Notes: a model not told the origin generated them from the sequence alone. A stretch of 64,000 nucleotides of DNA from an uncultured Candidatus Saccharibacteria bacterium (GCA_964405015.1 CAYOME010000001.1:77611-141610), one strand, 5' to 3'. Counted from the first letter of the stretch, positions 9,761 through 38,250 are shown. A program made the numbers and translations.

Positions 9761-9770
9761 CTATATATCC

Positions 9771-16016: not shown

Positions 16017-16094
16017 GGTGGCTATAGCTCAATTGGTTAGAGCATCGGTTTGTGGAACCGAGGGTTGTGGGTTCAAGTCCCATTAGCCACCCCA
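16017..16094 (+). tRNA. tRNA-His (anticodon GTG), with encoded G-1 and encoded CCA
   Basis: A cloverleaf was built by hand. The acceptor stem is GTGGCTA/TAGCCAC with G-1:C73. D-arm is GCTC...GAGC and the anticodon stem is TCGGT/ACCGA with loop TTGTGGA. The T-arm is GTGGG-TTCAAGT-CCCAT, and the 3' end is CCA. Confidence 0.9.
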
Positions 16095-17576: not shown

Positions 17577-20061
17577 CAGTGTAATTCATTCTAAAACTTA
17601 TTCTATTTTCATAATTATCTTGCTTGACTAATTCGTAATAGAATTTATCATTCAGCTTTGCCTTCACTACACCTTCAGCTTCTAATCTTTCTATGGACAT
17701 TTCATTGATAAAATTGAATAAGTCTCCTTTATACAATGTGTCTTTGTTGCCTTCTAAATGCTCACCTTTGCTTTCAACAATATAGACAAAATCAAGTTTT
17801 CCATCCTCATCCTTCTTTGCTACCACAAAGTCAGGTCTAACCTTATCTTTTTGCCATCCTTGAATTGCATACCAGCCCTTACTTGCTCTATTTCTAACCC
17901 ACCAAATGGTGTTTTTTTGTCTTTCTAAATGCTTCGCGACATCAAGCTCTAATCCGTTTATGCTTGTAATATCAAAGTCTTCATATAGGTAATACTTGTA
18001 TGGGTTGTGCGGATAATCTTTGATTTTATCTTGCTCTGGTAATCTGAAACCAATTTCCTTGTCGCTAACTGCTATTACAAGTGTTTTGTCATCAACCATC
18101 CTATTAAATATCTCTTTTTCTTGGACTCTTTTGATATTTTCAAATGCTTTGATAATTTCAGAAATGATAAAACCATTATATTTACCTAAATCTTTTTCGT
18201 CTTTTACTTTCTTGATAAGTAACTTAAACAACTTTTCTGAAATATATCTAGATACAAAGGCATTTTCTATATAGTCATTTAATCTTCTTGTTAAGTATTC
18301 TGTATCGAAATGAACATCACTAAACCTTACTTCACTGCTCATACTCTCTGTGATAGCTCCTTCATCCATACCAACCTTAATAAGTGTTGTTTCAAATGTC
18401 TCATTGCCAATTAAAGGAATAATACCATCTGTTATAGTTTCCAAATCAACTCCTTCATAATCAATCTTTGGCTTTATATCTACACTATAGTTAAACTCTC
18501 TGTATAAACCATTCTTCTCTTTTATTAGCCATAAAGGAAGATACAAACTTTCAGGATACTTCTCTTTTAGCTCTCTCTTAATCTTCACGACCTTTGTTAC
18601 TGATTCACTTGTTTCAGTTTCTGTATTGATACTGTATTTGGCTAAATCATCAAGTCCTTCGTTCTTAAATCCATTCTTGATTGTAGTTAGAATATTTTGA
18701 GTATGTCCGTTACAGTAATAAATATAGCTCTCGTCTAGGATTGGAGTTCCAGTCTTCTTGCCAAATGGTTGTCTTAAGACTCTTCCTACTAACTGGGTTA
18801 CGCTTGTATTTGAATTTACATTAGGGATAATTCCCAAAATATATGCAAACGGACAATCCCAACCTTCTTTTAGAGCATCTTTAGTTATTATGTATCTGAT
18901 AGGGCATTCTCTCGAAAGAAGGTCTATATTTTCAATATCATTTACACTACTTGTTTTTATAGCGATTTCTTCATCGGGAACACCTATGTCCTTTAGATAT
19001 TCTTTAATATCTTCACTATGCACAAAACCTTTTCCTCTCTGCTCTTTACCAGTTCTTTCTACTTGTATCAAGGCTATTGGTCTTATGTATTGTCCTGTGT
19101 TACTGTCATAATCTTTAGCTACTTTCTCTATCTTCTCTCTATAATCCTTAATCTCTTTCGTCATTGTTTGCCAATCTTCATTGCTAGTTGGAGCAATTAT
19201 GTTCATATCCAGCTTAACCATTTCTGCATCTTTTAGCTCTTGTCCTGTTACAGAAACCAATACATTCATTCCTGCCTTTGGAGTTGCTGAAAAACCTACA
19301 ACCATAGAAGGATTTAATCCATTAACAGTTTCAATTGCCTTTGGTGAGAATACTTTGTGTATTTCATCAATGATAATAAGAGGTCTTGTCAACCTTAAGA
19401 CATTTCCTAAACTTGTTTTAACCTGTGGCATAAAAGAATTAACACCTTGAAAGACATCAAGATTAGGAACTTTTTCTAATAGCTCGTGATGTAAGTCATA
19501 TCTGTTATCTTGTGGAAAGAAAGAGTTGTATGAGCCACTATCCATAAACACTTTGAGGCTTTCTTTTGTAGTTCTATTTACTGATTGAATCATAAGCATA
19601 AGAACTACAAGGTTTTCTTCTACATCTTCCGCTCTTAATTCCTGATTCTTTTCTACAATAAGAGTATGTCCTGCACTTGCTTGGTCTAGTAGTTGTCTAT
19701 ATGGGTCTGCTTTATCTCTTAACCTTTCTACTGTTTGAGAGTAGATAATTTCAGATGGAACTATCCATACAACAAGTCCTGTTTTTCTTTTAGCAAATAT
19801 GTCTTGATACTGTCTTATTGTATCTACTGCCAAGAGCGTTTTACCGCCCCCTGTAGGAACTTTAATACACAGTCGAGGGTAGAACTCATTTAGACCATTT
19901 CTATCCATATCTGGGACTCTAGAGAGTCCTACCTTATTGAATGCTAGTTGAACCCAAGCGTCTGGGTCAACATCCTTCAACAAGCTTCTTACTTCAGATG
20001 CTGTTTCTAGGTAATCTTTGAGCTTTTTAGCTACTTTTGTTTGATATGGCTTGAATATCAT
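17554..20061 (-). CDS. res: Type III restriction enzyme, Res subunit
   Basis: SF2 helicase motifs: Walker A 'PTGGGKT' and DEAH-box 'IIIDEIHK'. ~835 aa. Sits immediately downstream of mod with a 2-nt gap. Confidence 0.85.
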   Translation of the reverse strand: MIFKPYQTKVAKKLKDYLETASEVRSLLKDVDPDAWVQLAFNKVGLSRVPDMDRNGLNEFYPRLCIKVPTGGGKTLLAVDTIRQYQDIFAKRKTGLVVWIVPSEIIYSQTVERLRDKADPYRQLLDQASAGHTLIVEKNQELRAEDVEENLVVLMLMIQSVNRTTKESLKVFMDSGSYNSFFPQDNRYDLHHELLEKVPNLDVFQGVNSFMPQVKTSLGNVLRLTRPLIIIDEIHKVFSPKAIETVNGLNPSMVVGFSATPKAGMNVLVSVTGQELKDAEMVKLDMNIIAPTSNEDWQTMTKEIKDYREKIEKVAKDYDSNTGQYIRPIALIQVERTGKEQRGKGFVHSEDIKEYLKDIGVPDEEIAIKTSSVNDIENIDLLSRECPIRYIITKDALKEGWDCPFAYILGIIPNVNSNTSVTQLVGRVLRQPFGKKTGTPILDESYIYYCNGHTQNILTTIKNGFKNEGLDDLAKYSINTETETSESVTKVVKIKRELKEKYPESLYLPLWLIKEKNGLYREFNYSVDIKPKIDYEGVDLETITDGIIPLIGNETFETTLIKVGMDEGAITESMSSEVRFSDVHFDTEYLTRRLNDYIENAFVSRYISEKLFKLLIKKVKDEKDLGKYNGFIISEIIKAFENIKRVQEKEIFNRMVDDKTLVIAVSDKEIGFRLPEQDKIKDYPHNPYKYYLYEDFDITSINGLELDVAKHLERQKNTIWWVRNRASKGWYAIQGWQKDKVRPDFVVAKKDEDGKLDFVYIVESKGEHLEGNKDTLYKGDLFNFINEMSIERLEAEGVVKAKLNDKFYYELVKQDNYENRISFRMNYTDESNNHS

Positions 20062-20063
20062 CG

Positions 20064-21647
20064 CTATTTTTCTCTTTCAAATAGGTTATACGGAATACTT
20101 ACGAACTTGATATTGAATTGCTCCAAGTATTCATCATCCATAAAACAAGCAGGTGCATATACAATCTTTTTAGTCTCATTCCCTTCGGAAATTTCTTTAG
20201 CCCATTCAAAGGTTATAGCCATCTTCTTAAGTTCTTCCATATCAGGAGTGTAGAGTAGGTATACTTCTGTGTGGTCTACTTTTCCTGCTAGATATTTCTT
20301 TTCATCTATATCTTTGTCTTTTGGTGATTGTCCTGTTGCAAGGTAATACACATATTTCGCTAATTGTTTATATGTAGGCAATTGTCCTGATAGTATCGTT
20401 TCAGCATCTATTGGTTGTCCAACTCTTCTATATTCAAAACCAATATCTTTATTTGTTAATTTCTTCTCAATTACTTTTACAACTCTCTCTCTTGTAATAT
20501 CTCTTGCAATATTCTTCTTTGGCTCCTTTTCACTGTTTTCAGGCATTTGAATAAGGATAAATTTTCTATTACCTTCGTCTTCTTCATTTAACTCTAAAAC
20601 TGCTTGTGCTGTAGTTCCTGAACCTGCAAAAGCATCTAGAATAATGCCATCTTTATTTGGCGATAAACTAATTAAATGTTTAAGTAAAGTAACTGGTTTT
20701 GGGTTCTCAAACAGACTTTCCTCGCCAAGTAACTCTCGTAAATCACGGCTTGCTGAATCTGTTGTTCCATATAAATCGAGCAAATTGGGTTGAGCAGAAA
20801 GGCTGTCTTCTTCTTCGAAATCGTATATTTTTAATCGAACAATTCCATCGTCACCTTTTACAAAACGACCCTTCTCTTCAAGGGCTAAAGCTTTATCTTT
20901 GCCTATTTGCCATCTTTTCCCTCTGCGTGGCTTTTGTCCCAGTATCTCGAATTGCATAGAGTCCCTTTTATAGCTTCCAGTGTTTTTCTTCTCTATAACA
21001 CTTAATCTATAATTACCCTCTTCATCATCGTATGGATATTCCCTTGTTTCAGAACTTCTTACCCTTGGGTTCAACTTTGCTTTTGTAGTTTTGGAATAGC
21101 ATAAAATATACTCCGTAAGAGAGCTAACCTCTGCACCTGTTACATTGGATGTTGTTCCTTTCTTCTTCCATAGAAAGGTTGCCTTAAAATTTTCATCAGT
21201 AAAAATTTCATCCATAATGTCTCGAAGGCGGTGTATTTCGTTATCGTCGAGACTAATAAAAATCACCCCACTTTCAGAGAGCAACTCCCTCATAAGTTTT
21301 AATCTTGGAGTCATCATAGATAACCATTTATCGTGTCTTGTTAAATCATCAGAACCTACTTCTTTACCTATCCATTCCTTTACCAAAGGGCTGTTTACAT
21401 TGTCGTTGTAAACCCAGCCCTCATTTCCTGTGTTGTAAGGCGGGTCTATATAGATACAATCAACTTTCCCTGTGTATTGTGGTAACAAGCTCTTCAACGC
21501 GGGCAAATTATCACCTTCAATAATCAAGTTTCCATCTGCTTTATCCTGTTTATATGAGAGTTTTTCATCTAAATCTAAAGTATGGTATGGAACTGACATA
21601 TGATGATTCCATATTATGTTTTTACCCTTAAATTGTAGAGTTGCCAT
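20064..21647 (-). CDS. mod: Type III restriction-modification methyltransferase, Mod subunit (N6-adenine, beta class)
   Basis: Motif IV 'IYIDPPYNTG' and AdoMet motif 'FAGSGTTAQA'; the order is mod-res, as in Type III systems. Confidence 0.9.
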   Translation of the reverse strand: MATLQFKGKNIIWNHHMSVPYHTLDLDEKLSYKQDKADGNLIIEGDNLPALKSLLPQYTGKVDCIYIDPPYNTGNEGWVYNDNVNSPLVKEWIGKEVGSDDLTRHDKWLSMMTPRLKLMRELLSESGVIFISLDDNEIHRLRDIMDEIFTDENFKATFLWKKKGTTSNVTGAEVSSLTEYILCYSKTTKAKLNPRVRSSETREYPYDDEEGNYRLSVIEKKNTGSYKRDSMQFEILGQKPRRGKRWQIGKDKALALEEKGRFVKGDDGIVRLKIYDFEEEDSLSAQPNLLDLYGTTDSASRDLRELLGEESLFENPKPVTLLKHLISLSPNKDGIILDAFAGSGTTAQAVLELNEEDEGNRKFILIQMPENSEKEPKKNIARDITRERVVKVIEKKLTNKDIGFEYRRVGQPIDAETILSGQLPTYKQLAKYVYYLATGQSPKDKDIDEKKYLAGKVDHTEVYLLYTPDMEELKKMAITFEWAKEISEGNETKKIVYAPACFMDDEYLEQFNIKFVSIPYNLFEREK

Positions 21648-21843: not shown

Positions 21844-21883
21844 TATTTAACATTTTATATAAATATTCAAGAGATATGGAAAA

Positions 21884-23029
21884 TTATTTATGAACTACTC
21901 CTGTTAATTCTCTAGGTATAGTAACAAATAGGTTAAATTTGGATAATTGCTCATCAATATCATTGATAATATATGCCCTGTTATCCTCAACCTTTAGATT
22001 CTTAAGGAGTTTTTTGTAATTGCTCCATTTGTAACTGTCCTTTCCATACCAACCCATTGTGCTTCTTAATGCTTGAATCCCTCTAGTAGATATAATCCCT
22101 TGCATAAAAGATGTATTTATTAACTGTCTCTCTGATAGTTGTGGGTTTAGATTTTTAATAGATATCATCTTCTCGTAAAAATCCTCAGGCTTCCAAGTGA
22201 TACTTACATATTTATTTTTTATCTCTTTATTCCAAAAACTCGATAACATTGCTTGTGATAGCTTCCTACTGAATAGCTCTTTGAAGGTAAGTGGTGTTTC
22301 AGAATACTCAGGAGCGTAGCTCTGAATCTTTCTTTTTATTGCTTTCTGCCCAGTCATTCTAAACTCAAAACGCAGATAGTTATTATTAGGTAACTCATCA
22401 AGGAGATTAAGTTGTGTATATACTTGTTTATCTATACTCCTATCTTCGCTTATTTTACCTTGCTCTAATTCCCTTACTTTGTCATAAATAGCAAATTCAC
22501 TATCCTTATTATGTATATGTATTATTTGACCACCATTTTTGAATTGGTTCTCTGAGAAATCCTGCTTTAGATTGGTATCCAAAGCTTTCTTAAGCTGATT
22601 TAATACCATAGGACAGTTCAAGCCATCAGATAGCAGTATATTCTTAGAGAAGTGTATACCAACAACCTTAGAATCGATTAGACGCCCTCTAGAGATATGA
22701 AATTGATGCATCTTAAGTTTTAATTCAAGTTCATCAATGATTGATTCAAAATCATATTCACACACCTCTTGAAAATTGTTCTTGTAGAGTAGTTTAGGTA
22801 TTGAGAATTGAATATTTAAGCTAATATCTAATTCATTACGATACCTTCTGTAGAGAGTGTAAATAGGCACATATATACCTAGTTTTCTTTCTATCTCACT
22901 CGGATTTCGAGTATAAAATCTATAACCTCTGTCTGTTGTAAAAACATTCATAGCAGAGGGATTAAATTGTTCTAAATTGCCTATATCCATCTTTGTTGCT
23001 GGTATGGATAGAGTTATTGTGTCTATCAT
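21884..23029 (-). CDS. Hypothetical protein of the island core, weakly Rep_trans-like (a possible replication initiator)
   Basis: 381 aa. The N-terminus 'IDTITLSIP' and the internal 'RFEFRMTGQKA' recall rolling-circle Rep_trans proteins, but the resemblance is weak. Confidence 0.35.
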   Translation of the reverse strand: MIDTITLSIPATKMDIGNLEQFNPSAMNVFTTDRGYRFYTRNPSEIERKLGIYVPIYTLYRRYRNELDISLNIQFSIPKLLYKNNFQEVCEYDFESIIDELELKLKMHQFHISRGRLIDSKVVGIHFSKNILLSDGLNCPMVLNQLKKALDTNLKQDFSENQFKNGGQIIHIHNKDSEFAIYDKVRELEQGKISEDRSIDKQVYTQLNLLDELPNNNYLRFEFRMTGQKAIKRKIQSYAPEYSETPLTFKELFSRKLSQAMLSSFWNKEIKNKYVSITWKPEDFYEKMISIKNLNPQLSERQLINTSFMQGIISTRGIQALRSTMGWYGKDSYKWSNYKKLLKNLKVEDNRAYIINDIDEQLSKFNLFVTIPRELTGVVHK

Positions 23030-23291
23030 TCTTTTTCAATACTTCTTTTAATCTTTTATTTACTGCTTTCTCTATCGCTTGCCCTGATTCTTTGTTGATA
23101 GGGTAGTAGATATTGAAATTCTTCTCTCCAACCTTCCTTGTTGGATATACAAGTCGATATGATTCTTCTTCTAATCGCTTTATAACACCAATATTCCCAA
23201 GATAGATTGCATCTCCAATTACCAAACTTGCAAACGCTACTAATCCCTCTTTTGGCTTTACCAAATCAATACTTATTTCACTTATTTTCAT
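22962..23291 (-). CDS. SpoVG-like nucleic-acid-binding protein
   Basis: 'LVAFASLVIGDAIYLGNIGVIKRLEEESYRLVYPTRKVGEKNFNIYYPINKESGQAIEKAV' aligns with the conserved SpoVG core (KAxASITLDxxFVVxDIRVIxGxxGLFVAMPS...DIAHPINxxxRxxIQDAV). ~100 aa. Confidence 0.6.
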   Translation of the reverse strand: MKISEISIDLVKPKEGLVAFASLVIGDAIYLGNIGVIKRLEEESYRLVYPTRKVGEKNFNIYYPINKESGQAIEKAVNKRLKEVLKKNDRHNNSIHTSNKDGYRQFRTI

Positions 23292-23546
23292 TTACCTATA
23301 GCTTTAATTTAATATTCTCCTGTTCTATTTCATCTAAAAGAACAACAAAGTTAATTAGCTTCTCTATTTCGAAAGATTGTTCTGGAGATGTTTTAATAGT
23401 TGACTTATTTTCTATCAGTTTCTTCCATTTCTTATACTTTTGTTCTTTTTTGATATTTTCCATCATCAAGTAGATTCTATGATGACAGCTATAACCCTGT
23501 CGTAAAACAGGGATAAAATGGGATTTAATGGGATAGTTTGGAACTG

Positions 23547-24194
23547 TTACAATGTTACAGGGTTTTTGAATTTGATAGTGCTCTTTTCTGGATTAATGCT
23601 ATCTTCGTGGATATCAAAAAAAGTATCCTTCAGACCAGCTCTGAAACCCCATCTATCTGTAATCTTTTGGAATTTATCACTAATCACAATTCCTAATTGT
23701 TTTTCAAGTTCTTCCTTTTTATATATTGTATTTGGGTTATCATATAACCATTTGAATATACTTTCATTATCACGACCGAATTGCGGCTTAGAGAGTAATA
23801 TCTTTCCGTTTAATCTAATATTCCTATCTGATTTATACTCAACAAAAAAGTGATTGTTTTCAATTGTATTCTGGATAGAGTCGACCACATTAAGTTCCGA
23901 AGTAGCTTGAGCTATCAATTTTAAAAAATAATCTTTGTCTTTTACCTTTATATTATACCGAGCAGGAATAGGGGGTGGGAAATAACCTTCAAAGGGATTA
24001 AAAATTTCAAGTATTTCTAATTTACCATCCCTTTCAAATTGGTATAGGATAGAAAGTGCCTCATCATATTTAATATCTTTGATATGTTCACATCCAAAAT
24101 CTAATGTAGGATTTTCATCGGAAAGAACGAGCTTTGTAGCATCTATAATTGCAATAGCAAACTGTATTTTCTTTTCCTCGTAATTCATCTTCAA
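23547..24194 (-). CDS. Hypothetical protein (island cargo)
   Basis: 215-aa ORF; no recognisable motif. Confidence 0.4.
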   Translation of the reverse strand: MKMNYEEKKIQFAIAIIDATKLVLSDENPTLDFGCEHIKDIKYDEALSILYQFERDGKLEILEIFNPFEGYFPPPIPARYNIKVKDKDYFLKLIAQATSELNVVDSIQNTIENNHFFVEYKSDRNIRLNGKILLSKPQFGRDNESIFKWLYDNPNTIYKKEELEKQLGIVISDKFQKITDRWGFRAGLKDTFFDIHEDSINPEKSTIKFKNPVTL

Positions 24195-24878: not shown

Positions 24879-25844
24879 ATGAGTGAAGAAGTATTGAAAA
24901 AGAAACAAATTATAGAGAAACAACACTATATTCCGCAATTTTACCTAAAACAGTTTGAAGATAAGAATCATCTGATTCAGAGGCTAGATATTAAAGCAAA
25001 CGTAATAATTAAGCCCAAGGGTAAGAAGGGTATTTGCTTTGACAAATTTTTCTATGCTTTAGAAACAGGTGTAGAAGATGAAGTCAGTCAATTGGTAGAA
25101 GAATGGTTAGGTAACCTAGAGAAACACTTATCAAAAAAACTCCCTGAGATAATAGACTCTCTATCCTGTAATGATGCTGTCCCTGATGAAGACAAATATG
25201 ATGTTGCAATGTTAATGGCAATGTTATATTTAAGAGGTCCTGTCTTCCGTAGGAAGCTAAACGAAATGAGATTATCAGGTATAAAACAACTTCTTCAAAT
25301 GTTTTCAAAAATTCCGAAAGATACAGTTGAAGATTATTTTAAGAATCGATATGAAGTTAGCCTAACAAAGGCAGAATTAAACAAACTCCTAAATGGTGAG
25401 GTTGACGACCTAAAGTTTAACAACCTTCTTCATTTGGAAATGATGAACGAGTTACGAGGTTTTTCAAATATGCTTTTTGGGCAAGAATGGCTGGTTTATA
25501 GAAATAAGTCTAGTTATCCATTTGTTACTTCTGATAATCCTTTGAGCCCTGAGAGGTTAGAAAGAAAAAACTTCTATACTGGTGCTTTTATGGATTACAC
25601 TTATCATTTCGCATTATCACCGAAGATACATATTGTTAGTAAAATGCCTAGATTTGTTGAAGGAAAAAAACTTCATAGAAAAACTTTAACAGAAACAGAT
25701 AATGATTTAGTTTTGAGATTGAATCTCTATGTAGCAGATACTTGTAGACAGTTTGTATATGCGTCGAAACGAAGTGCTTTAGAAGATATTTCTGATATTA
25801 TCAGAAGATACAAAGAAATTATTAGACTCAAACAGGAAGAATAA
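24879..25844 (+). CDS. DUF4238-family protein
   Basis: The N-terminal 'QHYIPQFYLKQF' hallmark of DUF4238; ~320 aa. A TATAAT hexamer lies 10 nt upstream of the ATG. Confidence 0.55.
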   Translation: MSEEVLKKKQIIEKQHYIPQFYLKQFEDKNHLIQRLDIKANVIIKPKGKKGICFDKFFYALETGVEDEVSQLVEEWLGNLEKHLSKKLPEIIDSLSCNDAVPDEDKYDVAMLMAMLYLRGPVFRRKLNEMRLSGIKQLLQMFSKIPKDTVEDYFKNRYEVSLTKAELNKLLNGEVDDLKFNNLLHLEMMNELRGFSNMLFGQEWLVYRNKSSYPFVTSDNPLSPERLERKNFYTGAFMDYTYHFALSPKIHIVSKMPRFVEGKKLHRKTLTETDNDLVLRLNLYVADTCRQFVYASKRSALEDISDIIRRYKEIIRLKQEE

Positions 25845-25918
25845 TCAAGCAATATTAAAACCAAAATTCAAAATTGAAACAACTCTATCAATTAGAATAA
25901 CTTGTTCAGAGTCAAGGT

Positions 25919-27571
25919 TCATAATAACGTCATATAACCGACCCCAGATAATATTTTCATAGATTCTAATGCGTTAAAAGGTTCACGAAGCTCATAGTGA
26001 AGCACCTTTTTATCACCTACAGAAATGTTCACAAACACTAATTTGACCAACTGATCAATTAGATAGGCATTTTCAGTATTTTCTATTGTAGCAACTATGT
26101 TTTTAAAGAAGTTCACAAATAAATCATAATCAGGGAATTCAACATTTGCATGATATTCAGCTTCCTTATTCTGAACTTCTAGACCCTCTCTTTCTACCTC
26201 TAGATCTCTTATTTGGTGAATAATAATCTTCATTTCTTTTGAAAGCTGATTATTAACCACTTCATCTGTGGTTTTCAATATTTTCTCACTATATAGATTC
26301 CTCTTCTTCTCAAGACTAGTAATTCTTATATTCAATTTCCTAATTTCCTCATTTCTTTCTTTTGTTAAAGAATTTACCTCTTCAAAGTAAATCATCTTAG
26401 TTTTATCATAACTAGGCCTTGTAACATTCAAATTCTTACTTATAAAATCAGTTACAAAATCTAGAATTATCTTACCTCTAATTGTATTAGCAATCGGTTT
26501 AATCTTTTTTGTCCTTCTAGTTTCTTTACACTTATTATTCCCACAAGTAACATTCAAATATCTATCAGACTTTCCTGCACTGACACCTGGAATCATAATA
26601 GAACCACAATCACTGCACATTACAAAATCCTTAAAAGGTCTGAAGTTATTATTCATTTTCCAACCTCTTGGATATATTGTTCCTCTCTTTTGAATTGCGA
26701 TGAAATCAGAAGCCGAAACCATAGGTTTAAAATCAGGATCAACAGATAATAAATCAATAACTTGATCACCATAACAATAAAAGCCCGCAGAAAATGGATC
26801 CTTAAAGAAGCCAGAAAGCTTACCCGTATTTAACTCTAATCCTTCATTTTCTAATTCAGCAACAATCTCTTTCTGGGATTTTCCTTCTTTATATTGTTCC
26901 CAAGCATAAGTATAACTATCGTAAGTGTTTTTATCGGGTCTAAAGAAATCAGCTTTATTGGGAAGATATCCTTTTTTACTGGATCCCATGTATTTACCCT
27001 CACTAACTTTCTTCTTATTTCCTCTTTTTGTATCTTCAGAAAGTTTATCCGAGAATTCCTTAGCCATTGCAAAAAGGATACTTAATGTCATTTTACCCGC
27101 CGCATCATTATTGAAAGTGTAAGAGGGGAATTTGAGGTCAATAATATGGTCGTTGTCCAACATGTCCATAATCTCACCTGACTCTTTCATGTTCCTTGCT
27201 AATCGGTCTGGATGCCATGCAAGAATGGAATTATATGAATTCCCTGAGTTCAAGGTATCAAGCATTCTTTGAAATTCAAGTCGCTTACCAGCTGTCATAG
27301 CACTTTTTTCTTCTCTAATAATCTCAACAACTTCTAGATTATTATCCTTAGCAAATTTCTTACAAATATCTATCTGATCATCAATAGATTGAACTTGTCT
27401 CTTTTCATCTTCGGTAGATTTACGAGCATAAATAACATAGAGAGCTTTCTTATCTATTAAATCTCTTTCATCTTTAGTCTTTTTCTTTTTAGAGTTGTAA
27501 ACTTGAGCGTAAGAGCGCAGTAATTCTCTAGATTGAACTTCTGTAAGTTTGTCCGCAGATTCCTTCATCAA
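25919..27571 (-). CDS. Large serine recombinase 2
   Basis: Resolvase domain 'ALYVIYARKSTEDE' with the catalytic Ser, a recombinase domain, a zinc ribbon 'CSDCGS...CGNNKC' and a C-terminal coiled coil. Same orientation as recombinase 1. Confidence 0.85.
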   Translation of the reverse strand: MMKESADKLTEVQSRELLRSYAQVYNSKKKKTKDERDLIDKKALYVIYARKSTEDEKRQVQSIDDQIDICKKFAKDNNLEVVEIIREEKSAMTAGKRLEFQRMLDTLNSGNSYNSILAWHPDRLARNMKESGEIMDMLDNDHIIDLKFPSYTFNNDAAGKMTLSILFAMAKEFSDKLSEDTKRGNKKKVSEGKYMGSSKKGYLPNKADFFRPDKNTYDSYTYAWEQYKEGKSQKEIVAELENEGLELNTGKLSGFFKDPFSAGFYCYGDQVIDLLSVDPDFKPMVSASDFIAIQKRGTIYPRGWKMNNNFRPFKDFVMCSDCGSIMIPGVSAGKSDRYLNVTCGNNKCKETRRTKKIKPIANTIRGKIILDFVTDFISKNLNVTRPSYDKTKMIYFEEVNSLTKERNEEIRKLNIRITSLEKKRNLYSEKILKTTDEVVNNQLSKEMKIIIHQIRDLEVEREGLEVQNKEAEYHANVEFPDYDLFVNFFKNIVATIENTENAYLIDQLVKLVFVNISVGDKKVLHYELREPFNALESMKILSGVGYMTLL

Positions 27572-29585: not shown

Positions 29586-30125
29586 TACCAAGATTTTTAC
29601 CAAGTTTTCCATAGTTTTTTAGTAACAAGGGAAGTTTTGAAACGCTTATGTAAATGCTACTAGTAGTTAACCAATAAGTATCACCAGGGAAAAGAAAGTA
29701 GAGTGTCTTAAGAAATACTCTTAAACCATCCATCTATTTTCTATCCTTTGTGAGGATCACTCCCTCAACATCTATGTATATCTTCATGTTACTACTATTT
29801 AATATTAATAACCCTCAACTTTCAAACCATTTTCCACTAAACACTTCCTATATTGATCAGGAGAATGAAGAATATTTAAAAGAAAATTATAAAGTAAAGG
29901 ATTAGTCTGGAAGGATATCCCCCCTAAAACTAAGTCTATCTTCCAATATATTCCAACATGGTCATCCATACCCCGATGTAACTAATCATCTACTTTGTAT
30001 CAATTTCCGACACACTAAATATTGAAATTTTGTTTTCATACCATGTATTACCATGTTTTGTTGAAAAAAGATGTAGTAGGGTAGCAATAATGGATTTTTA
30101 TTAAAGACATTAAAATTGCAACGTT

Positions 30126-30824
30126 TTAGTAATTATTTATTAAATCTATACCCTTTTCTGCATCAGGAAATACTTCAAACTTATATTTATTTGTAAAATA
30201 ATATTCAGGTAACTGTGAGAGTATCTTAGAATTAGATTCACCTTTCAACTGGTGATCACATCCCTCTATAATATGTGTTTGAACAGTCCTTGCGCTACTT
30301 GTATATCCTTTAAGGAATTCAAGGGTGTCAGGGGCTATTACAGAGTCTTCTGAGCCTATCACAATGAATAGATCTCCCTTATATCGTGGTAAATACTTCT
30401 GAATATCTTCCCTCAAGTTAGGGAGATTTATAAATGGATTAATAACTAAGACTTTGGTTACTTCTGGAAATTCCCAAGCTGTAAGTAATGCTGAAGCACC
30501 TCCAGCTGAGAATCCCATTAAAAATATTTCAGGGGTTTCAGATACAACGAATTCCAACGTTTTTTCTAAAGTGTAGTTAATCACCGTCCTTGCAGTTTCG
30601 TTGTAATCCTGAGGTCTTTCATTAGGTATTCTTACAAATGAAGCGATATTCCTTTTTTGAAGATAATTAGCTAAATTCAAGTATTTATTCTCATATCCTT
30701 CAGAAGTTCCACCTGCTCCAGGAATATTAATAATTACTTTGTTTGTTGAAGTAGGGTGATATGAGACAGGAATATCCCACCATGATTTAAGATAGATCTT
30801 TTCAGTTATGAAGGTATCACTCAC
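30126..30824 (-). CDS. Alpha/beta hydrolase (esterase or dienelactone-hydrolase-like)
   Basis: Nucleophile elbow 'GFSAGG' (GxSxG) and a C-terminal His (CDHQ). 232 aa. Confidence 0.6.
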   Translation of the reverse strand: MSDTFITEKIYLKSWWDIPVSYHPTSTNKVIINIPGAGGTSEGYENKYLNLANYLQKRNIASFVRIPNERPQDYNETARTVINYTLEKTLEFVVSETPEIFLMGFSAGGASALLTAWEFPEVTKVLVINPFINLPNLREDIQKYLPRYKGDLFIVIGSEDSVIAPDTLEFLKGYTSSARTVQTHIIEGCDHQLKGESNSKILSQLPEYYFTNKYKFEVFPDAEKGIDLINNY

Positions 30825-30827: not shown

Positions 30828-31289
30828 CTAATATAATGCTCCTTGAATTACTTTAAAATATTTACCTCTATTCCTGTGATATTGGGGAAATTCTTTCTCT
30901 AAGTTTTCTACAATTTCCTTAAGGTTATTATCAACCTTTCTCCAGCAATCTAGTTTATCCTTTTGACATAGTATTTTTTCTTCATCACCAGAGATTCTAT
31001 TAGTAAACCAGTAAACTTTGTGTCTAAAATCGATAGCATCTGTTCTCAGGTCTTCCCAATTTACAACCTTCATAAACTTTAATCTATAGAATATATCTCT
31101 CTCCAAGACTCTATCAAAGTGTTCAATTAGTAAAGACGTATCACCACTTCTACAAAGGGTAGATAATATAAATACATTTCCATCAAATATCGTAGATAGT
31201 ATATCTAGAAATTCTTTTAGGTATGGCATTTGTTTACCATCTTTTATTAATATGACATTATCAATATCTATATATGCTCTCATAATCAT
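30828..31289 (-). CDS. Small HAD-like hydrolase (possible nucleotidase)
   Basis: N-terminal 'AYIDIDNVIL' matches HAD motif I (DxDx[TV]), with 'ILSTL' and 'GDEE' as candidate motifs II and IV. Only 153 aa. A 3-nt gap separates it from the hydrolase. Confidence 0.35.
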   Translation of the reverse strand: MIMRAYIDIDNVILIKDGKQMPYLKEFLDILSTIFDGNVFILSTLCRSGDTSLLIEHFDRVLERDIFYRLKFMKVVNWEDLRTDAIDFRHKVYWFTNRISGDEEKILCQKDKLDCWRKVDNNLKEIVENLEKEFPQYHRNRGKYFKVIQGALY

Positions 31290-31325: not shown

Positions 31326-31829
31326 TTACTCCTTAAATAATCCTCTCCTTTGACCTTCTTCTACTCCATATCCAATTCTTACTTCAAGCCTAGAATCTAA
31401 CTGCTTTTTTAATTCTCTGTAGGAATCAATCATCATTTTATATTCAATAAAAGATATTTCTTCTTTTTTATCTTTAGCCTCCTTGAGGACTGTAATTAGT
31501 GCAGTTAACACTTGTATATTTTTCTCAAACAAGTCTAAGTATTGTTTTAAGAGAACATCCTCTGGGAAATCTTTTCGAGATTGTATTTTCTCTAAGCTTT
31601 GTTTACATACCAAAAGATCATTCAAACAATCTTCGGATTTATCCTCATTTTTATTAAGCATTAGTTGCAAAACGGATTTGTCTTTTTGGAAGTATACCCT
31701 ATCTATCTCATTAAAAATTTTGAATACCTGAAAAGAATCTACTATTGCTTGTGTGTAAGCCTCTTTATCGTCTGACATATAAACTTCTGACCAAGTTATA
31801 TATAAATTGTTTGTGAGTATTTGAGACAA
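31326..31829 (-). CDS. Hypothetical helical protein; the start codon is uncertain (TTG at 31829 or ATG at 31778)
   Basis: The 167-aa ORF in the track begins at a TTG; the first ATG would give 150 aa. First gene of a three-gene minus-strand operon. Confidence 0.4.
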   Translation of the reverse strand: MSQILTNNLYITWSEVYMSDDKEAYTQAIVDSFQVFKIFNEIDRVYFQKDKSVLQLMLNKNEDKSEDCLNDLLVCKQSLEKIQSRKDFPEDVLLKQYLDLFEKNIQVLTALITVLKEAKDKKEEISFIEYKMMIDSYRELKKQLDSRLEVRIGYGVEEGQRRGLFKE

Positions 31830-32023: not shown

Positions 32024-33901
32024 TTAGAATCTATATACAATGTTCTTTTTTGCCTTTCTTTGACCACTGAAATCAAGAAGCATTTTTTCGAAATTCTCAT
32101 TACTTTCTTTTAACTTTTTTTGTTTTTTATCATAATAAAGAGTATCTTCAACAAACCCTTTAATTTCACTTGATACTAACTTAGTTGTGTCTTGAGGACA
32201 AACAGACAACAATTCTAATAGCATAGAAAATACTAAATTACTGACAAAGAAATAATATGGTATTAACTCGTTATTAAAACCTACTTCTAAATGATCCGCT
32301 CCGTTGTGTATAATCTTTGAGCGATATGAATAAGCTTTGCTATATCTTTTATTAAAATTCTGAAAATTTAAGCCTAAAGACTTAATTATTTTAGAATGAT
32401 TTTTAAAGAGCTCTTTATTTTGATAATTTATTGAATGTTCGTATTCTAAAGCATTACGCATATTTGAATTTTTAAATTCAGGAACTTTGTTGATTATCTC
32501 AATTATCTTTTTAAACTCTAGGTCTCCTTCGCCTTTTCTCCTAGAAGGAGTAAAATATGCTCCGAGTTTATCTATAATTCCCCACAGCTCTACGTAGGAG
32601 GATGCTAAAGAATGGGGTTGCTTAGAATCACGGTAATCCCTCAACAAGCCTTTTATGAAAAGCCTGAAGTTCTTACCTTTTCTATGAAGATTTGTTATTG
32701 ATGGATTTAGATATTTTGCATACTCAAAACTATACAACGAATTATAGGATCTTCCTTTATGACTATTATAAATGTAATTCCTCTCTGAAAAAATCGCGTT
32801 TCTATTAAATAACGATAAAATCAAAGATATCTCTTCAAGAAATTCTAACGGTTGTTCAACTTTTTGGGAATTTAATTCTAATGTATGTGTCCAAATCATT
32901 CTCCCCTCCGATGGAGGAAATATTTCCTCTTTAATCTCAGCTGGAATCCCAAGGGAGATATCTACAGATCTCTTAGAGGTCTTAGTCGGTTTATAAAAAA
33001 ATCTCATATCTTGATCATAAGTGAGATTCTTAACAATCCTAAATCGAGATGCGGAGATATAAGGAAAGCCATCGATCTCAAAGTTGTAAAGTTTATATAG
33101 CAATATTTTACTTTTCGAATCAAGACCTCTATCCTTTATATTTATTAGCAATCCAGTTGACAAATCAGACTTTAAAAAAGTATCTTTTATAGAGATAAAT
33201 CCACCTTTGTATGAATACCTTTCTTCCAATAATTTTAACAACCTTTCTGAAAATATATAGAATTCACCTAAAAATATGTTAACAGCTTTGAAAAGTTCAG
33301 GAATAGGTGAATTGTCTCTTGGTATAATACTAATCTTTTTCGTTCCATCTTCTTCTATAGATGTTTGCGCTTTTGTCATGTTTAAATACCCTTTTTGAAA
33401 CCTGTTCAACAAAATTTGTATTTGCTGTTGATTCTCAGTTAACAGAAAAAGCTTCAAGTATTCTGCAATTGTTGTATCTCTTAGCGCTAGCTCGTTAATA
33501 ATCTCTTCAACCTGAATTTCTTCATCTTTGACACCCAAATCAAAGAAATAAGCAATAAAATTTAACATACTATATTTTATTGTGTAAATGTGGTTGATCA
33601 GATCTAACAAAAGGAAACCTTTGACGAAGTCTTTGCTATACATCTCATTAGAAAGGGGTAGTTCGCCATTTATATGTTTAACTGAAAAATTCAAATCTTT
33701 TATTCGATCACGTAAATAAATAATTCTTTGTAGAGAGGCTTGATTACGAACAAACTTGTTAATGTTTAGTTTTTCATGAATGCTAACTCCTGAATTTAAT
33801 GGATCCTCTGTTGCAAACTGCGATACAGTAGATTGTATCTTATCCCATATTTCTAATATTTTTTCCGGATCTTCTGTAACACTTAGTTTATTATGTTCCA
33901 A
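32024..33901 (-). CDS. Hypothetical protein with a C-terminal Rx4H (HEPN-like) motif
   Basis: 625 aa, mostly helical. 'YRSKIIHNGADH' near the C-terminus fits the HEPN Rx4-6H signature. No other recognisable domain. Last gene of the MmeI-like operon. Confidence 0.4.
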   Translation of the reverse strand: MEHNKLSVTEDPEKILEIWDKIQSTVSQFATEDPLNSGVSIHEKLNINKFVRNQASLQRIIYLRDRIKDLNFSVKHINGELPLSNEMYSKDFVKGFLLLDLINHIYTIKYSMLNFIAYFFDLGVKDEEIQVEEIINELALRDTTIAEYLKLFLLTENQQQIQILLNRFQKGYLNMTKAQTSIEEDGTKKISIIPRDNSPIPELFKAVNIFLGEFYIFSERLLKLLEERYSYKGGFISIKDTFLKSDLSTGLLINIKDRGLDSKSKILLYKLYNFEIDGFPYISASRFRIVKNLTYDQDMRFFYKPTKTSKRSVDISLGIPAEIKEEIFPPSEGRMIWTHTLELNSQKVEQPLEFLEEISLILSLFNRNAIFSERNYIYNSHKGRSYNSLYSFEYAKYLNPSITNLHRKGKNFRLFIKGLLRDYRDSKQPHSLASSYVELWGIIDKLGAYFTPSRRKGEGDLEFKKIIEIINKVPEFKNSNMRNALEYEHSINYQNKELFKNHSKIIKSLGLNFQNFNKRYSKAYSYRSKIIHNGADHLEVGFNNELIPYYFFVSNLVFSMLLELLSVCPQDTTKLVSSEIKGFVEDTLYYDKKQKKLKESNENFEKMLLDFSGQRKAKKNIVYRF

Positions 33902-33922
33902 TGCTTAATTATTATGTTAATT

Positions 33923-34597
33923 TTATTCTGAATTTTCTGGCCATAATTTTGGCATAGATTCAGGAGCACGAATTTGCCAAAATGTATTCGGAATACTAAG
34001 ATTCTTATCATCGTCTTCATGATAAAAAGTGATATTTTTATAGGGATCAAATGCATTAAGTCCATATTGAGAACATAGCAATATTCCAAGCGCAGCAACA
34101 GAGAACACTGCATTTTCCAGGTTCGCCCAATAAAATTTAGAGTCTCTATTATGTTTTACTTGATTATATACATAATACCAGTCTAACCATTCTCCATTAT
34201 CGCAGAACTTCCAAACATCAGAATATCCTGAACAGCTCTGCCATGTCATATAAGGAGATAAATTCGCACCATATTGTCCTTCTATTTTCCAATCAGCTAA
34301 AAGGGGAGAATAAAAACAATAATCATAAAGCTCGAGTTTATTTGCTGATTTAAAATAAGTTTCAATATTGGAATTCTTTATCTCTTCATCAGTTGAATTA
34401 TTCTTCTTTAATATCTGGCGAGAAACATTTTCAAATTCAGTCCCACATCTGAGAATTATTTCATAAAAACGATGAGAGTAGGTTTGCTTGTTTTGATCAA
34501 CAGGTTCTATATAATCAAAAGTTTTTAAAAGGTCACTCTCTAAAAGGTTGTATGCTTTGCAATTAGAAAACCTTCTATCCACTTCCAGTCTATTCAT
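33923..34597 (-). CDS. Hypothetical protein (Trp/Tyr/Cys-rich)
   Basis: 224 aa with no recognised motif; a 21-nt gap separates it from the next gene. Confidence 0.45.
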   Translation of the reverse strand: MNRLEVDRRFSNCKAYNLLESDLLKTFDYIEPVDQNKQTYSHRFYEIILRCGTEFENVSRQILKKNNSTDEEIKNSNIETYFKSANKLELYDYCFYSPLLADWKIEGQYGANLSPYMTWQSCSGYSDVWKFCDNGEWLDWYYVYNQVKHNRDSKFYWANLENAVFSVAALGILLCSQYGLNAFDPYKNITFYHEDDDKNLSIPNTFWQIRAPESMPKLWPENSE

Positions 34598-34636
34598 GGC
34601 CTTTTATTACATTAATTTAGTCATCCATTACGTTAA

Positions 34637-37600
34637 TTAGAAAGCCACAGTGTCAATTTCTTTGATTATTTTATCAGTTTCTCTAAGAACTATTGTTATC
34701 ATGGAATAGTGTTCAATATCATCAGGACTTAATTCTCTCCCTTTCCTATCCATCAACCATTTCTGAGCTGGTTGATATCCACCTATATAGAAATTCCAAG
34801 CTACTTCGGATACATTTCCGAAACATTGAGTAGAGTTGACATATATCTTTCCATCCTCAAACTTTGTCCTTTCAACAACATTATTTCCTTCTCCTAGGTA
34901 TGATACCTCGTATGGGTCTATATTCTTGTGTTCGAGTAGATGATATTTGATAAGTTCATTTCCTAATTTAGTCAATTTATCAAATGTCTCCCGGTCTTTA
35001 GGATATGGAATTCTAGGATAATCAATTTTTAAAAATTCTTGAAATTTCTCTCTATATTTTGAACTATTAAGAACAGCGTAAGTATACCTAAGAATCTCTT
35101 CTGGAGTTATTTTGCCAATGTGAGACTCTATCTTTTCAATGATACCTTCGTTTAAGTTAGCTTTCCTCACATCTTCACCCTCGGTAAAAGTATAGAGTGG
35201 AAATATTTGCTCTGCACCTTGCATACCTGGCCGAGACCAATATCTTCTGTCGACAATTCGATTAGAGATAAAACAAGGGGAGCTTCGAGATTCGTCAAAA
35301 CCTCTTTTCACAATAAGACCTACATTATTTCTCAACATATACTTCATAACGTTATATCTGCCATTGCATACAAAGCCATTCTGTTTACCGGTATAGAAGG
35401 TCTTACGAATATCAAAGGGTCTATATAAGATATCAACAAAATTAGTATATTCACCGATATTTTGAAGGATGTCTGCCTTTGCTCTGTTGATTTTCCAATC
35501 TCGTGAATCCTTCGTTTTATATTTTAAGGCAATTTCGTTTTCCGACAGATCGGCAAAATCATCAACAACATTCCGGATTTCTTGATCTGTAAATTGAATT
35601 GCTATCGAATCCCTAACAGTTTCAACACCAGAGACAGATTGAATAAATAAACCATCTATAGGAATATATTCATCGTAAATTGACTTATTCGTAAAATCTT
35701 TTTTAACAAAATAAAAATTTGGTTTAGTATAGTCAAGCTTAGAATACTCAATCTTATCAAATTCATTTGATAATCCCTCAAATTTCTTTTTTCTCAATCC
35801 AAATAGATCTTTATGATAAACACTTGCTAAGTTTGTTTTATCATTTCCAACTTTAACAAAAATGTTAATAGAAACACCTTGTTGGATATCAAAAACATTC
35901 TCATCCCTTGAACCATCTGGTGCAACTTCCTTCTTTTTTGAGTTTCCATGCAAGTCTAGTATATAAATATTATCAAATGTCTCTAAAAGGTGCTTTCGCA
36001 TTTGCCTATGGGTGATACCATCCAAAAATGAATTATTTGTAATCATTGCCACAATTCCACTACCATTCTTCTCAACTAATGATTCTGCAAACCTTATAAA
36101 CTTTATATAATCATCATCTAGATTTATTTTTTTCTCATTTAAATCTTGTTTGTATACTTTAATTAAATTCTGAATCCAATCTCCTTTATTTTGTGAACTA
36201 ACACTATATGGAGGGTTTCCTAATATAACCATTATGGGTTTGTCTTTTTTAATCTCAGAAGCTTCTTTAGACTCTTGAGATATACTATCAGCTAAACCAA
36301 AGCCTTCGAACATATCACCAATTGTGTTTCCTTCTTCCAGAGAATTAGTTAGGTAGATTCCTAATCTTCTGTTGTTAAAGTATTTGAAACCCATTTCTTT
36401 TAACAACATACTCATCTTCAGATGAGCAATGGTATATGGAGCAATCATTATTTCAAATCCAAATAACCTCGGAAGAACTTCATGTAATACATAGCTTCCC
36501 CAATTTCCAGCTTGTTTTTGTCTTCTCTCGTGTATTATCTTGATAACTTCCGTTAAAAAAGTTCCTGTTCCTGTAGCAGGGTCTAATACTTGAACTACAT
36601 GTCCTTTTTCATTCTTGGAGCTGTTCGCAAGTCCTCCTGTGAGCTTAAAATCATGTTCTAGTATATGGTCTACACTTTTTACAATGAATTGAACAACTGG
36701 AAGTGGGGTATAGTAAGCTCCAAATTCTTTTCTCTTCTTACTATCATACTCTTGTAGAAAATCCTCATAGAAGTGTATTACAGGGTCTTTAGATCCTTTC
36801 TCCGTGCCGTAATAATTACTGATGAGTTTAGAGATATCTGAATGAGAAAATACTCTACAAAGCTCATCAACGATACTATCCAATCTGTCATCAAAATCAG
36901 CTCCTGCTATATGGTCGAAGAAATGTCTTAGTAGTGGGTTTGAAGCTGGAACTAAATCCCTAGCTTCTGACCTAGTAAAAGTATCAGGAGATGTATCGTG
37001 GAATCTTGCAACAAACAAGCCGTAGACTAGAGTTTGTGCATACATGTCTGCGAAATCATCGGTTGACATATCATGTATGAGTTGTCTTTTCATGGTCTCG
37101 TAGACTTTATAGATACTTCGCTTCTCTTTTTCAGGACTATTAAGCATCTCTCTTGCATTCTCTCTAATACGATATGCTTTTCCACCCATTATCTTAGCCA
37201 GATGAGAACCAGATTTAATTGCTTCTTTATGAGATTCCGTAAATTGGATTAATGTTTTTCTTAATAGCTCAAAGTTTTCTGGATTGTATGATAGGGTTCT
37301 TTCTTTTTTATCGTATGAAGCAATAGAAATAGGCTCAACGTATTTAATTCCGTTCCTGTAGAATCTAAATTCTAAATAATCTGTTAATATGAGATTGTCA
37401 TATCCATAATATCGCGTAAGTTGTTCAGATTTCTCAATCTTATCAAGTGATACTCCAATATCTTTTACTTCTACATAAAGTAGGGGAACACTTCCTTTTG
37501 ATAAAACAAAGTCTGGCTTATTACCACCTACAGCCTTTCCATCGTGATCAATGTTTGTAACTTTTATTTCGCTAAATATTTCTTTTAGAAAGTTTTCGAA

Positions 37601-37708
37601 TGGTGTCCGGTATCCATATTCCGATGTTTGTGTTTGTGAATACTTTTCAGATACTTCGTTTAAGTAGCGATTCAATATCTCGTAGGTTGTTTTTAAAGTT
37701 GTATCCAT
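34637..37708 (-). CDS. MmeI-family Type IIL restriction-modification enzyme (fused PD-ExK endonuclease, gamma-class N6-adenine methyltransferase and target-recognition domain)
   Basis: The N-terminal 'PDFVLSKGSVPLLYVEVKDIGVSLDK' parallels the MmeI nuclease motif 'VDLFWPGILLIEMKSRGKDLDK'. 'GAYYTPLPVV' matches MmeI 'GAHYTSEANI'. Motif IV 'ILGNPPYSV' matches MmeI 'ILGNPPFVG'. 1023 aa. Confidence 0.85.
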   Translation of the reverse strand: MDTTLKTTYEILNRYLNEVSEKYSQTQTSEYGYRTPFENFLKEIFSEIKVTNIDHDGKAVGGNKPDFVLSKGSVPLLYVEVKDIGVSLDKIEKSEQLTRYYGYDNLILTDYLEFRFYRNGIKYVEPISIASYDKKERTLSYNPENFELLRKTLIQFTESHKEAIKSGSHLAKIMGGKAYRIRENAREMLNSPEKEKRSIYKVYETMKRQLIHDMSTDDFADMYAQTLVYGLFVARFHDTSPDTFTRSEARDLVPASNPLLRHFFDHIAGADFDDRLDSIVDELCRVFSHSDISKLISNYYGTEKGSKDPVIHFYEDFLQEYDSKKRKEFGAYYTPLPVVQFIVKSVDHILEHDFKLTGGLANSSKNEKGHVVQVLDPATGTGTFLTEVIKIIHERRQKQAGNWGSYVLHEVLPRLFGFEIMIAPYTIAHLKMSMLLKEMGFKYFNNRRLGIYLTNSLEEGNTIGDMFEGFGLADSISQESKEASEIKKDKPIMVILGNPPYSVSSQNKGDWIQNLIKVYKQDLNEKKINLDDDYIKFIRFAESLVEKNGSGIVAMITNNSFLDGITHRQMRKHLLETFDNIYILDLHGNSKKKEVAPDGSRDENVFDIQQGVSINIFVKVGNDKTNLASVYHKDLFGLRKKKFEGLSNEFDKIEYSKLDYTKPNFYFVKKDFTNKSIYDEYIPIDGLFIQSVSGVETVRDSIAIQFTDQEIRNVVDDFADLSENEIALKYKTKDSRDWKINRAKADILQNIGEYTNFVDILYRPFDIRKTFYTGKQNGFVCNGRYNVMKYMLRNNVGLIVKRGFDESRSSPCFISNRIVDRRYWSRPGMQGAEQIFPLYTFTEGEDVRKANLNEGIIEKIESHIGKITPEEILRYTYAVLNSSKYREKFQEFLKIDYPRIPYPKDRETFDKLTKLGNELIKYHLLEHKNIDPYEVSYLGEGNNVVERTKFEDGKIYVNSTQCFGNVSEVAWNFYIGGYQPAQKWLMDRKGRELSPDDIEHYSMITIVLRETDKIIKEIDTVAF

Positions 37709-37782
37709 ATACTGTATCTGCTTAGTCTCGATAGACGTTACTCATCTGACCCATTATACTTCGAAATCGTCTCTATTTAAAA

Positions 37783-38250
37783 CTAATATTTTTTATATGT
37801 CGTTATGGTTATATCTGTCTTCTCAATTTCTATAGTTTCAACCATATCACATTTAATACCGTATGCCTTCTTTATACGGTTCACTTCTTCTTTTTGAGTT
37901 TTCCTTCTAGTTATCTTTTTAATAACCTTGATAGGTTCTGCAATCGCAAACTCGACAAGCTTTTCAATTAAGATTCCCTTCACCAGATCAGGAATACCCT
38001 CCCAAATGTTGAGTATTATTTCTTGAATAGATGCTCCAGCACCTCTTTCTTCATGTATGTATCTTCTCTCAACTACATAATAAGAGTTCGTTAATTCAAA
38101 GCCCTCACGCGACTCTAAATACTCTTCGAGGGCATTAAAATCAAATTGATCAGGTAGGTCAACTTCAATTACCTCGACAAGCTCTCCTTCCCCGGGGTTA
38201 TCATCAGTCCTAAGATATCTCTTAATAATGAAATTGTTGATATCACTCAT
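37783..38250 (-). CDS. Hypothetical protein, first gene of the MmeI-like operon
   Basis: 155-aa acidic protein; 74-nt gap to the MmeI-like gene. Confidence 0.45.
   Translation of the reverse strand: MSDINNFIIKRYLRTDDNPGEGELVEVIEVDLPDQFDFNALEEYLESREGFELTNSYYVVERRYIHEERGAGASIQEIILNIWEGIPDLVKGILIEKLVEFAIAEPIKVIKKITRRKTQKEEVNRIKKAYGIKCDMVETIEIEKTDITITTYKKY

Follow-up and report, generated by a model that had tools for sequence, protein, structure and literature searches.

Four adjacent genes around a Type IIL restriction-modification enzyme in a Saccharibacteria genome are probably independent neighbours in a mosaic tRNA-His island

Do a Type IIL restriction-modification (R-M) enzyme and three proteins of no assigned family, encoded one after another in an uncultured Candidatus Saccharibacteria bacterium, form a single composite defence system, or have separately mobile genes come to lie side by side? 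The genes are part of a 64,000-nucleotide (nt) stretch of DNA (GCA_964405015.1 CAYOME010000001.1:77611-141610), which as a whole we refer to as the window, and in which an initial annotation had described a four-gene operon at positions 32,024 to 38,250. A listing of open reading frames (ORFs) matches that description exactly in ORFs, lengths, strand and spacing: p155 (155 amino acids, aa; 37783..38250), the R-M enzyme p1023 (1023 aa; 34637..37708), p224 (224 aa; 33923..34597) and p625 (625 aa; 32024..33901) are all encoded on the minus strand, the first three with an ATG start and p625 with a TTG start, and are separated by gaps of 74, 39 and 21 nt. Our analysis indicates that ~16.0-38.3 kb of the window form a mosaic integrative island at tRNA-His, or two islands in tandem or nested, in a low-GC genome whose best relatives also point to Saccharibacteria or the Candidate Phyla Radiation, and that the four genes are independent cargo or backbone neighbours within it, a reading to which we give a probability of roughly 0.7.

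The four genes had been proposed to act together, and a neighbourhood check set in advance as the test of this composite system does not support it, because the accessory genes are not conserved together with the R-M gene: p155 is an orphan, none of the seven relatives of p1023 (0/7) has a homologue of p155, p224 or p625 within 5 kb, no Type IIG gene is found beside a p625 homologue at the nine loci other than the window (0/9), and none adjoins a p224 homologue in three distinct contexts (0/3). The four-gene operon is also an arbitrary cut, since its tight co-directional spacing stands but the same-strand run goes on past p625 with p167 (31326..31829, after a gap of 194 nt), p153 (30828..31289) and the alpha/beta-hydrolase p232 (30126..30824; Pfam Hydrolase_4 and Abhydrolase). 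Both p232 and the uncharacterised p167 travel with p625 homologues. The four genes may be co-transcribed, which we call possible only, because a consensus promoter and terminator scan performs at chance level (41 promoter-like sites against 44 expected) and predicts no terminator between them. As their assortment differs among relatives, p1023, p224 and the p625/p167/p232 module appear to move independently, under a tandem as well as a nested model, and the evidence speaks for genes that merely share a defence or cargo island rather than for coupling.

The R-M enzyme had been placed in the MmeI family of Type IIL enzymes. That p1023 is a single-polypeptide Type IIL/IIG enzyme is upheld, but the MmeI label is not: because its target recognition domain (TRD) is Type_ISP_C and its best solved relative is DrdV, p1023 is, on its domain content, a DrdV-like single-chain Type IIL enzyme and not a member of the MmeI family proper. 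Its Pfam matches are Type_ISP_C (4e-76, residues 687-1016), N6_Mtase (1.9e-15), Eco57I (3.7e-11), a marginal MmeI_Mtase (33 bits against a cut-off of 27) and a weak HSDR_N, and in PADLOC the REase_MTase_IIG model scores 892 bits, with models spanning the N-terminus. The motifs of a PD-(D/E)XK type nuclease (PDF at residue 65, EVKD at residue 80) and of a gamma-class N6-adenine methyltransferase (DPATGTG, the S-adenosylmethionine motif, at 376, and NPPY at 498) are intact, and no helicase, ResIII, ATPase or translocase domain is found by Pfam, which separates p1023 from Type ISP enzymes. Among PDB sequences, the top phmmer match is DrdV (7lo5; 4e-44, residues 312-937), followed by the Type ISP enzymes LlaBIII and LlaGI, and MmeI is absent from the matches at E <= 1e-3.

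A Type IIL enzyme of 1029 aa in one chain, DrdV works alone, and its methyltransferase and TRD resemble those of Type ISP enzymes (10.1101/2021.01.06.425610). The two proteins, DrdV (7lo5/7lvv) coming from Deinococcus radiodurans, are of similar length (1023 aa in p1023 against 1029 aa) and share the domain order of nuclease, connector, gamma-class N6-adenine methyltransferase and C-terminal TRD, with a Type ISP-related TRD in both and no ATPase domain in p1023; their sequence similarity, however, is remote, and the nuclease domain lies outside the phmmer alignment. Like MmeI (Type IIL, PDB 5hr4), p1023 joins nuclease, methyltransferase and TRD in one polypeptide, but it carries the Type_ISP_C TRD instead of the MmeI-specific domains, and the N-terminal, helical, TRD and C-terminal Pfam domains specific to MmeI are not matched. 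PADLOC cross-matches of the methyltransferase to PglX and DrmMI are weak and confined to the methyltransferase domain, and PADLOC finds no PglZ, BrxC/PglY or DrmA/B partner in the neighbourhood, which confirms the earlier statement that PglZ, BrxC and DISARM components are missing.

The seven relatives of p1023, found in a scan of genome contigs, are 36-77% identical to it and come from Saccharibacteria, Dojkabacteria, Paceibacterota, Gracilibacteria, Aurantimonas and Verrucomicrobiota. Their neighbours are different each time: GmrSD and a serine recombinase at tRNA-His (L018), a DUF2779 gene (L019/L020), a DUF2726 gene (L021), and TraG-like and Panacea-antitoxin genes (L022). The 502-aa gene beside the Type IIG homologue of L019/L020 was rejected as a recombinase, since the 34-aa tblastn match was misleading and Pfam identifies the gene as DUF2779. 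L018, a Saccharibacteria metagenome-assembled genome, was seen to carry at 3247-11112 a GmrSD gene (Type IV restriction) directly upstream of a 68%-identical Type IIL gene, which is followed by a serine recombinase, similar to rec550 of the window (described below), that overlaps tRNA-His. The same R-M gene thus serves as cargo in another island.

Upstream of the R-M gene, p155 had been described as acidic, and its isoelectric point of 4.9 agrees. Only identical copies of it were found among 5.8 billion protein clusters, and it has no match in Pfam, PADLOC, NCBIfam, PHROG or the PDB or, by tblastn, in phage or plasmid collections, and we read it as a lineage-specific orphan.

The initial annotation could assign none of the three accessory proteins to a family, and it is correct that none matches a Pfam, PADLOC or NCBIfam family, but p224 has a HEPN fold, with MNT-HEPN type toxins as its best structural matches. 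Weak Pfam matches of p224 to DUF5677 and DNA_pol3_a_NII (E 0.01-0.06) were not used. The Rx4-6H motif is absent from the whole protein and from its family, in which the invariant residues are YSHR, RxxTEFE and the non-canonical motif YNxVKHNR (Y144-N-x-V-K-H149-N-R151). Compared with the HepT/MNT-HEPN toxins (HI0074, SO_3166, PDB 7ae2) and AbiV, p224 lacks the arginine of Rx4-6H, contains an additional insert with beta structure, is extended at the C-terminus, is encoded with no MNT partner gene beside it, and shows a sequence identity of 5-12%.

Six non-identical homologues of p224 were identified (37-70% identity; 55-70% for those in islands), and their positions point to the backbone of an island. 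In the P0008 and P0007 groups, which lie on long contigs, the homologue opens a conserved island with the layout [p224-like]-[242/243 aa]-[SpoVG-like]-[Rep-like, weak Phage_CRI]-[variable R-M cargo]-[large serine recombinase]. In the P0006 group, on the short contigs L015-L017, it is followed by 241-aa, SpoVG-like and Rep-like genes and preceded by other unannotated genes, so that a terminal position is not established there. The cargo differs between islands, being an NgoPII endonuclease with a C5 methylase in L006 and a helix-turn-helix gene with Type III Mod/Res in L011. The window contains the corresponding 242-aa gene as a weak homologue, p215 (23547..24194, minus strand; BLASTP 25% identity over 85 aa, E 1e-9, also found by tblastn), separated from p224 by ~9.7 kb that are missing from L006 and L011; at this same point L015/L016 have an insert of a 61-aa gene and an NfeD/SDH-protease gene.

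More distant relatives of p224 (phrog_19461, 1.9e-12) are part of ~330-aa hypothetical proteins. They include gene 1 of the P2-like Salmonella phage SEN8 (L036 128-1126), which encodes a 332-aa hypothetical protein and lies between the cos site and the HNH/portal module, a position where accessory genes are often found, and others on plasmids of Bacteroides (beside RloB/ATPase and RhuM), Chryseobacterium (near an AAA-ATPase and UvrD) and Klebsiella. Comparison by hhalign revealed no relation between the p224 family and the 231-aa gene downstream of the Type IIG homologue of L021, and neither the p224 nor the p625 family was found in the viral contig collection.

For p625, the motif YRSKIIHNG had been noted as an Rx4H arrangement of the kind seen in HEPN RNases. 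It occupies residues 526-534, with RSKIIH at 527-532, and by itself it is weak, because p625 contains five Rx4-6H matches (RSKIIH and four others) against 1.7 expected from its composition; it is conservation in the family that gives the motif meaning. A word-indexed search yielded one distinct homologue (35% identity), and an exhaustive HMMER search of 1.84 billion representatives yielded ~13 more that are full-length, together with two stand-alone C-terminal domains (P0025 and P0026, 155-170 aa); in all, the family has ~20 representatives in that set. In an alignment of 15 sequences at 20-36% identity, R527 and H532 are the only invariant residues, as they also are with 14 sequences, and the other conserved motifs are WTHTL, SHK, YRxxxQP and LWEIID. 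Over the motif stretch, the C-terminal domain of the member P0021 scores above the gathering threshold of Pfam HEPN_Apea (24.9 bits against 24.4, E 3e-5), and a second member gives a weak score. This pattern is highly suggestive of a real HEPN-type active site, which we consider very probable, in line with the initial annotation. The protein thus far described consists of a predicted helical N-terminal region, a central region with WTHTL and SHK, and a putative C-terminal Apea-like HEPN domain.

A comparison with ApeA, which Gao in 2020 is said to have reported as a single-gene defence system, helps to place p625. ApeA acts as a homodimer, and Ec1ApeA, a system of one protein of 601 aa, has its RNKITH near the C-terminus, at R521 (10.64898/2026.03.20.713152). 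p625 is likewise one protein of ~600 aa in which a large N-terminal region precedes a putative HEPN domain at the C-terminus, its motif is similarly placed (R527 in a protein of 625 aa), one member of its family reaches the HEPN_Apea model, and ApeA genes are at times found inside R-M operons (PMC3710099). On the other hand, the N-terminal ~230 aa of p625 are predicted to be helical, from a poor AlphaFold2 (AF2) model, while ApeA-NTD1 is mostly beta (PMC3710099); WTHTL, SHK and YRxxxQP are specific to the p625 family, which is extremely rare; and none of its 15 members matches ApeA_NTD1 (Pfam) or ApeA (PADLOC) at E <= 1. Because layout and motif position are alike but the N-terminal region differs and is partly helical, p625 is probably ApeA-like in its likely mode of action and not a member of the ApeA family. 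No match to p625 was found by tblastn in the phage and plasmid collections.

Homologues of p625 occur in ten loci (the window, L001/L002 and L025-L032), and in an all-against-all comparison of these the only recurrent neighbours are serine recombinases and homologues of p232 and p167. In L001 a serine recombinase that overlaps tRNA-Asn lies 3 kb from the p625 homologue, in L031 and L032 one is directly divergent from that homologue, and in the window the recombinase is rec550; L025-L030 have p625 homologues with no recombinase nearby. p232 is 62% identical to a gene beside the p625 homologue in L001 and has a fragment in L025, and p167 is 50% identical to the N-terminus of a 358-aa gene beside the p625 homologue in L001/L002. 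These variable neighbourhoods fit p625 as a stand-alone gene, and we regard it as a candidate single-protein RNase defence effector.

The island itself is anchored at a tRNA-His gene (16018..16094, plus strand; ARAGORN), its integration site. Overlapping this gene with its 3′ end is rec497, a large serine recombinase (16083..17576; Pfam Resolvase, Recombinase and Zn_ribbon_recom), followed, also on the minus strand, by a Type III Res (17554..20061; Pfam ResIII, PADLOC REase_III 483 bits), a Type III Mod (20064..21647; Pfam N6_N4_Mtase, PADLOC MTase_III 427 bits), the Rep-like gene p381 (21884..23029; 44-45% identical to the L006/L011 backbone gene, which shows a weak Phage_CRI match there), a SpoVG-like gene (22962..23291; Pfam SpoVG, 57-59% identical to the L006/L011 backbone gene) and p215. 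Mod and Res are 59% and 61% identical to those of L011, and rec497 is 53-55% identical to the recombinases of L006 and L011. The complete backbone at 16018-24194 is common to the islands L006, L011 and L016 at 45-61% protein identity, and their R-M cargo differs. The overlap of recombinase and tRNA-His is also seen in L006, L016 and L018.

Beyond p215, a DUF4238 protein (24879..25844, plus strand; Pfam 3e-35) with no PADLOC match lies between two recombinase modules, the second being that of rec550, another large serine recombinase (25919..27571, minus strand; Pfam Resolvase 2.5e-25) that is 57% identical to the one abutting tRNA-His in the Type IIG-bearing island L018. Half of a tRNA-His junction is preserved at the rec550 3′ end: the sequence (window 25850-25930) reads TTATCTGGGGT and diverges right after GGGGT, and in L018 the same sequence runs into an intact tRNA-His. 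This junction fits a half attachment (att) site left by successive insertions targeting tRNA-His, whether tandem or nested. As in other tRNA-targeting serine-recombinase islands with defence cargo, the recombinase abuts the tRNA gene, the cargo is variable (Type II, Type III, Type IIL, GmrSD) and the backbone is conserved across relatives; the difference is that the hosts here are Candidate Phyla Radiation bacteria. The combination of backbone genes (a HEPN-fold terminal gene, the 242-aa gene, the SpoVG-like gene and a Phage_CRI-like Rep) was not found described in the literature searched.

Other features in and around the island were recorded. p153 has no significant match in Pfam, PADLOC, NCBIfam or PHROG. 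Its N-terminus is matched at 45% identity by a stretch of 42 aa downstream of the hydrolase gene, at ~29662-29787 (minus strand; positions converted from a tblastn match in L003 and L004, two identical contigs), and this stretch may be a decayed p153 duplicate. Within the island, an ORF of 568 aa on the opposite strand (27879-29585, plus strand) has no Pfam or PADLOC match and no homologue in the related loci that were compared. Just past HD, response-regulator, MBOAT and SGNH genes on the island's far side, a protein with a nuclease-related NERD domain (42281-42868, plus strand) and, next to it, an SdpI/DUF1648 membrane protein (42885-43538, plus strand) could be further accessory or defence genes. 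The window also has two very large ORFs on the plus strand, of 2223 aa (48225-54896) and 1503 aa (56-4567), and in a related genome a heliorhodopsin gene adjoins the island (L006 6604-7371).

Several points weigh against a mosaic of independent genes. The spacing of 74, 39 and 21 nt and the lack of predicted terminators fit co-transcription, which would leave room for a local functional coupling. Some R-M module is present in all three complete islands with a p224 homologue (3/3), and in L026 a large N6_N4 methyltransferase fusion comes after the p625 homologue, so that a loose link between HEPN and R-M genes is possible. The samples are small (six non-identical p224 homologues and ~10 p625 contexts), and searches for att-type direct repeats or a second tRNA-His 3′ end gave only chance-level matches, so the island borders given here are approximate. 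As to the HEPN proteins themselves, p224 may not be an RNase, because it lacks the catalytic arginine; the AF2 model of p625 is poor (predicted local distance difference test 45.6), and the putative HEPN fold of its C-terminus draws on sequence conservation; profile searches with the whole p625 family or with just the C-terminal domain matched nothing credible among PDB sequences; and hhalign found no relation between the p625 C-terminus and the p224 family.

Of the other explanations, the one that survives best is that p224, p625 or both serve the mobile element, as addiction toxins or in the control of recombination or replication, with the R-M genes as ordinary selfish cargo. It would account for the terminal position of p224 homologues in the island backbone, near the 242-aa, SpoVG-like and Rep-like genes, in the two long-contig groups, for the proximity of p625 homologues to serine recombinases in L001, L031, L032 and the window, and for MNT-HEPN toxins as the best structural matches of p224. 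We nonetheless hold it unlikely: Pfam identifies no MNT-type or other recognisable antitoxin beside p224 or p625, the p625 homologues of L025-L030 have no recombinase nearby, and the distant relatives of p224 occupy spots in phages and plasmids that are typical of defence genes.

Less well supported by the neighbourhoods, and in our view decidedly unlikely, is a local coupling after the manner of PrrC/EcoprrI, in which p1023 would restrict foreign DNA while holding p224, p625 or both inactive, and inhibition of the R-M enzyme by a phage would free the HEPN RNase or RNases and stop translation. The operon-like spacing, the two HEPN-type genes directly downstream of the R-M gene, the R-M cargo of the p224-homologue islands and the methyltransferase fusion of L026 all speak for it, and a linkage between HEPN and R-M genes has long been recognised: it is known for at least 16 HEPN clades, with ApeA in epsilonproteobacterial R-M operons among them (Anantharaman 2013, PMC3710099); for that reason even a coupled reading would be a variant of a known idea. 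PrrC/EcoprrI and RloC, the conceptual model of the original proposal, resemble the locus in having a HEPN-type gene beside an R-M gene, but neither p224 nor p625 has an ABC-ATPase N-terminal domain by Pfam, and the linkage to the R-M gene is not conserved here. Partners are missing from all seven Type IIG relatives, as are Type IIG genes from the p625 and p224 contexts elsewhere, p155 is an orphan, and DrdV-type enzymes act alone (10.1101/2021.01.06.425610). The R-M modules that occur in one island with a p224 homologue are of different types (Type II, Type III and Type IIL) and sit 3-5 kb away at the other island end, which speaks against a specific protein-protein partnership.

It is improbable that the Rx4H of p625 is a coincidence in a helical protein with some other activity, centred for instance on WTHTL, SHK or YRxxxQP: the excess of Rx4-6H matches over chance, the 14 of 15 members with no significant HEPN Pfam match and the failure of PADLOC ApeA on all 15 would allow it, but R527 and H532 are the sole invariant residues of a family this divergent, P0025 and P0026 consist of this domain alone, and P0021 passes the HEPN_Apea gathering score over the motif region. 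Equally doubtful is the most ambitious combination, a layered defence that restricts and then shuts down RNA, repeatedly assembled from mobile modules, in which the two HEPN-type proteins would be island-borne guards of any R-M module present and would act together with the Type IIL enzyme; here the p224 family would mark a new tRNA-His island family, with R-M cargo in each complete case, and p625 would be a new ApeA-like RNase with a novel sensor region.

On the mosaic reading, the genes would have arrived by insertion at tRNA-His through large serine recombinases, in an order that, like RNase activity and a role in defence, we infer. By homology to DrdV, a single p1023 polypeptide would recognise an asymmetric site through its Type ISP-like TRD, methylate one adenine for self-protection (hemi-methylation), and cleave foreign DNA at a fixed distance once it is bound to several unmodified sites simultaneously, with no need of a partner. 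p224 could be an island-borne toxin, have an abortive infection or stabilisation function, or have a non-catalytic role in binding RNA or nucleotides. p625 would combine ~400 aa of putative sensor region with a C-terminal Apea-like HEPN RNase, two copies dimerising so that their Rx4H motifs make up one composite site for RNA cleavage once the N-terminal part senses infection; its travelling companions are p167, the hydrolase p232 and a serine recombinase rather than the R-M gene.

Our result is mostly clarifying, in that a plausible-looking operon proves to be best read as an accretion of separately mobile genes and is therefore not to be catalogued as a new composite defence system. What remains new are two HEPN-type families that had not been characterised and, in Saccharibacteria, a family of tRNA-His islands of which the literature searched gave no description. 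The p625 family, rare, with an ApeA-like layout and an invariant Rx4H, offers a cheaply testable candidate for a new single-gene anti-phage RNase, and the p224 family presents a HEPN fold without the catalytic arginine, placed at the end of serine-recombinase islands. The tRNA-His islands that shuttle R-M systems among Saccharibacteria bear on how ultra-small episymbiotic bacteria acquire defence genes.

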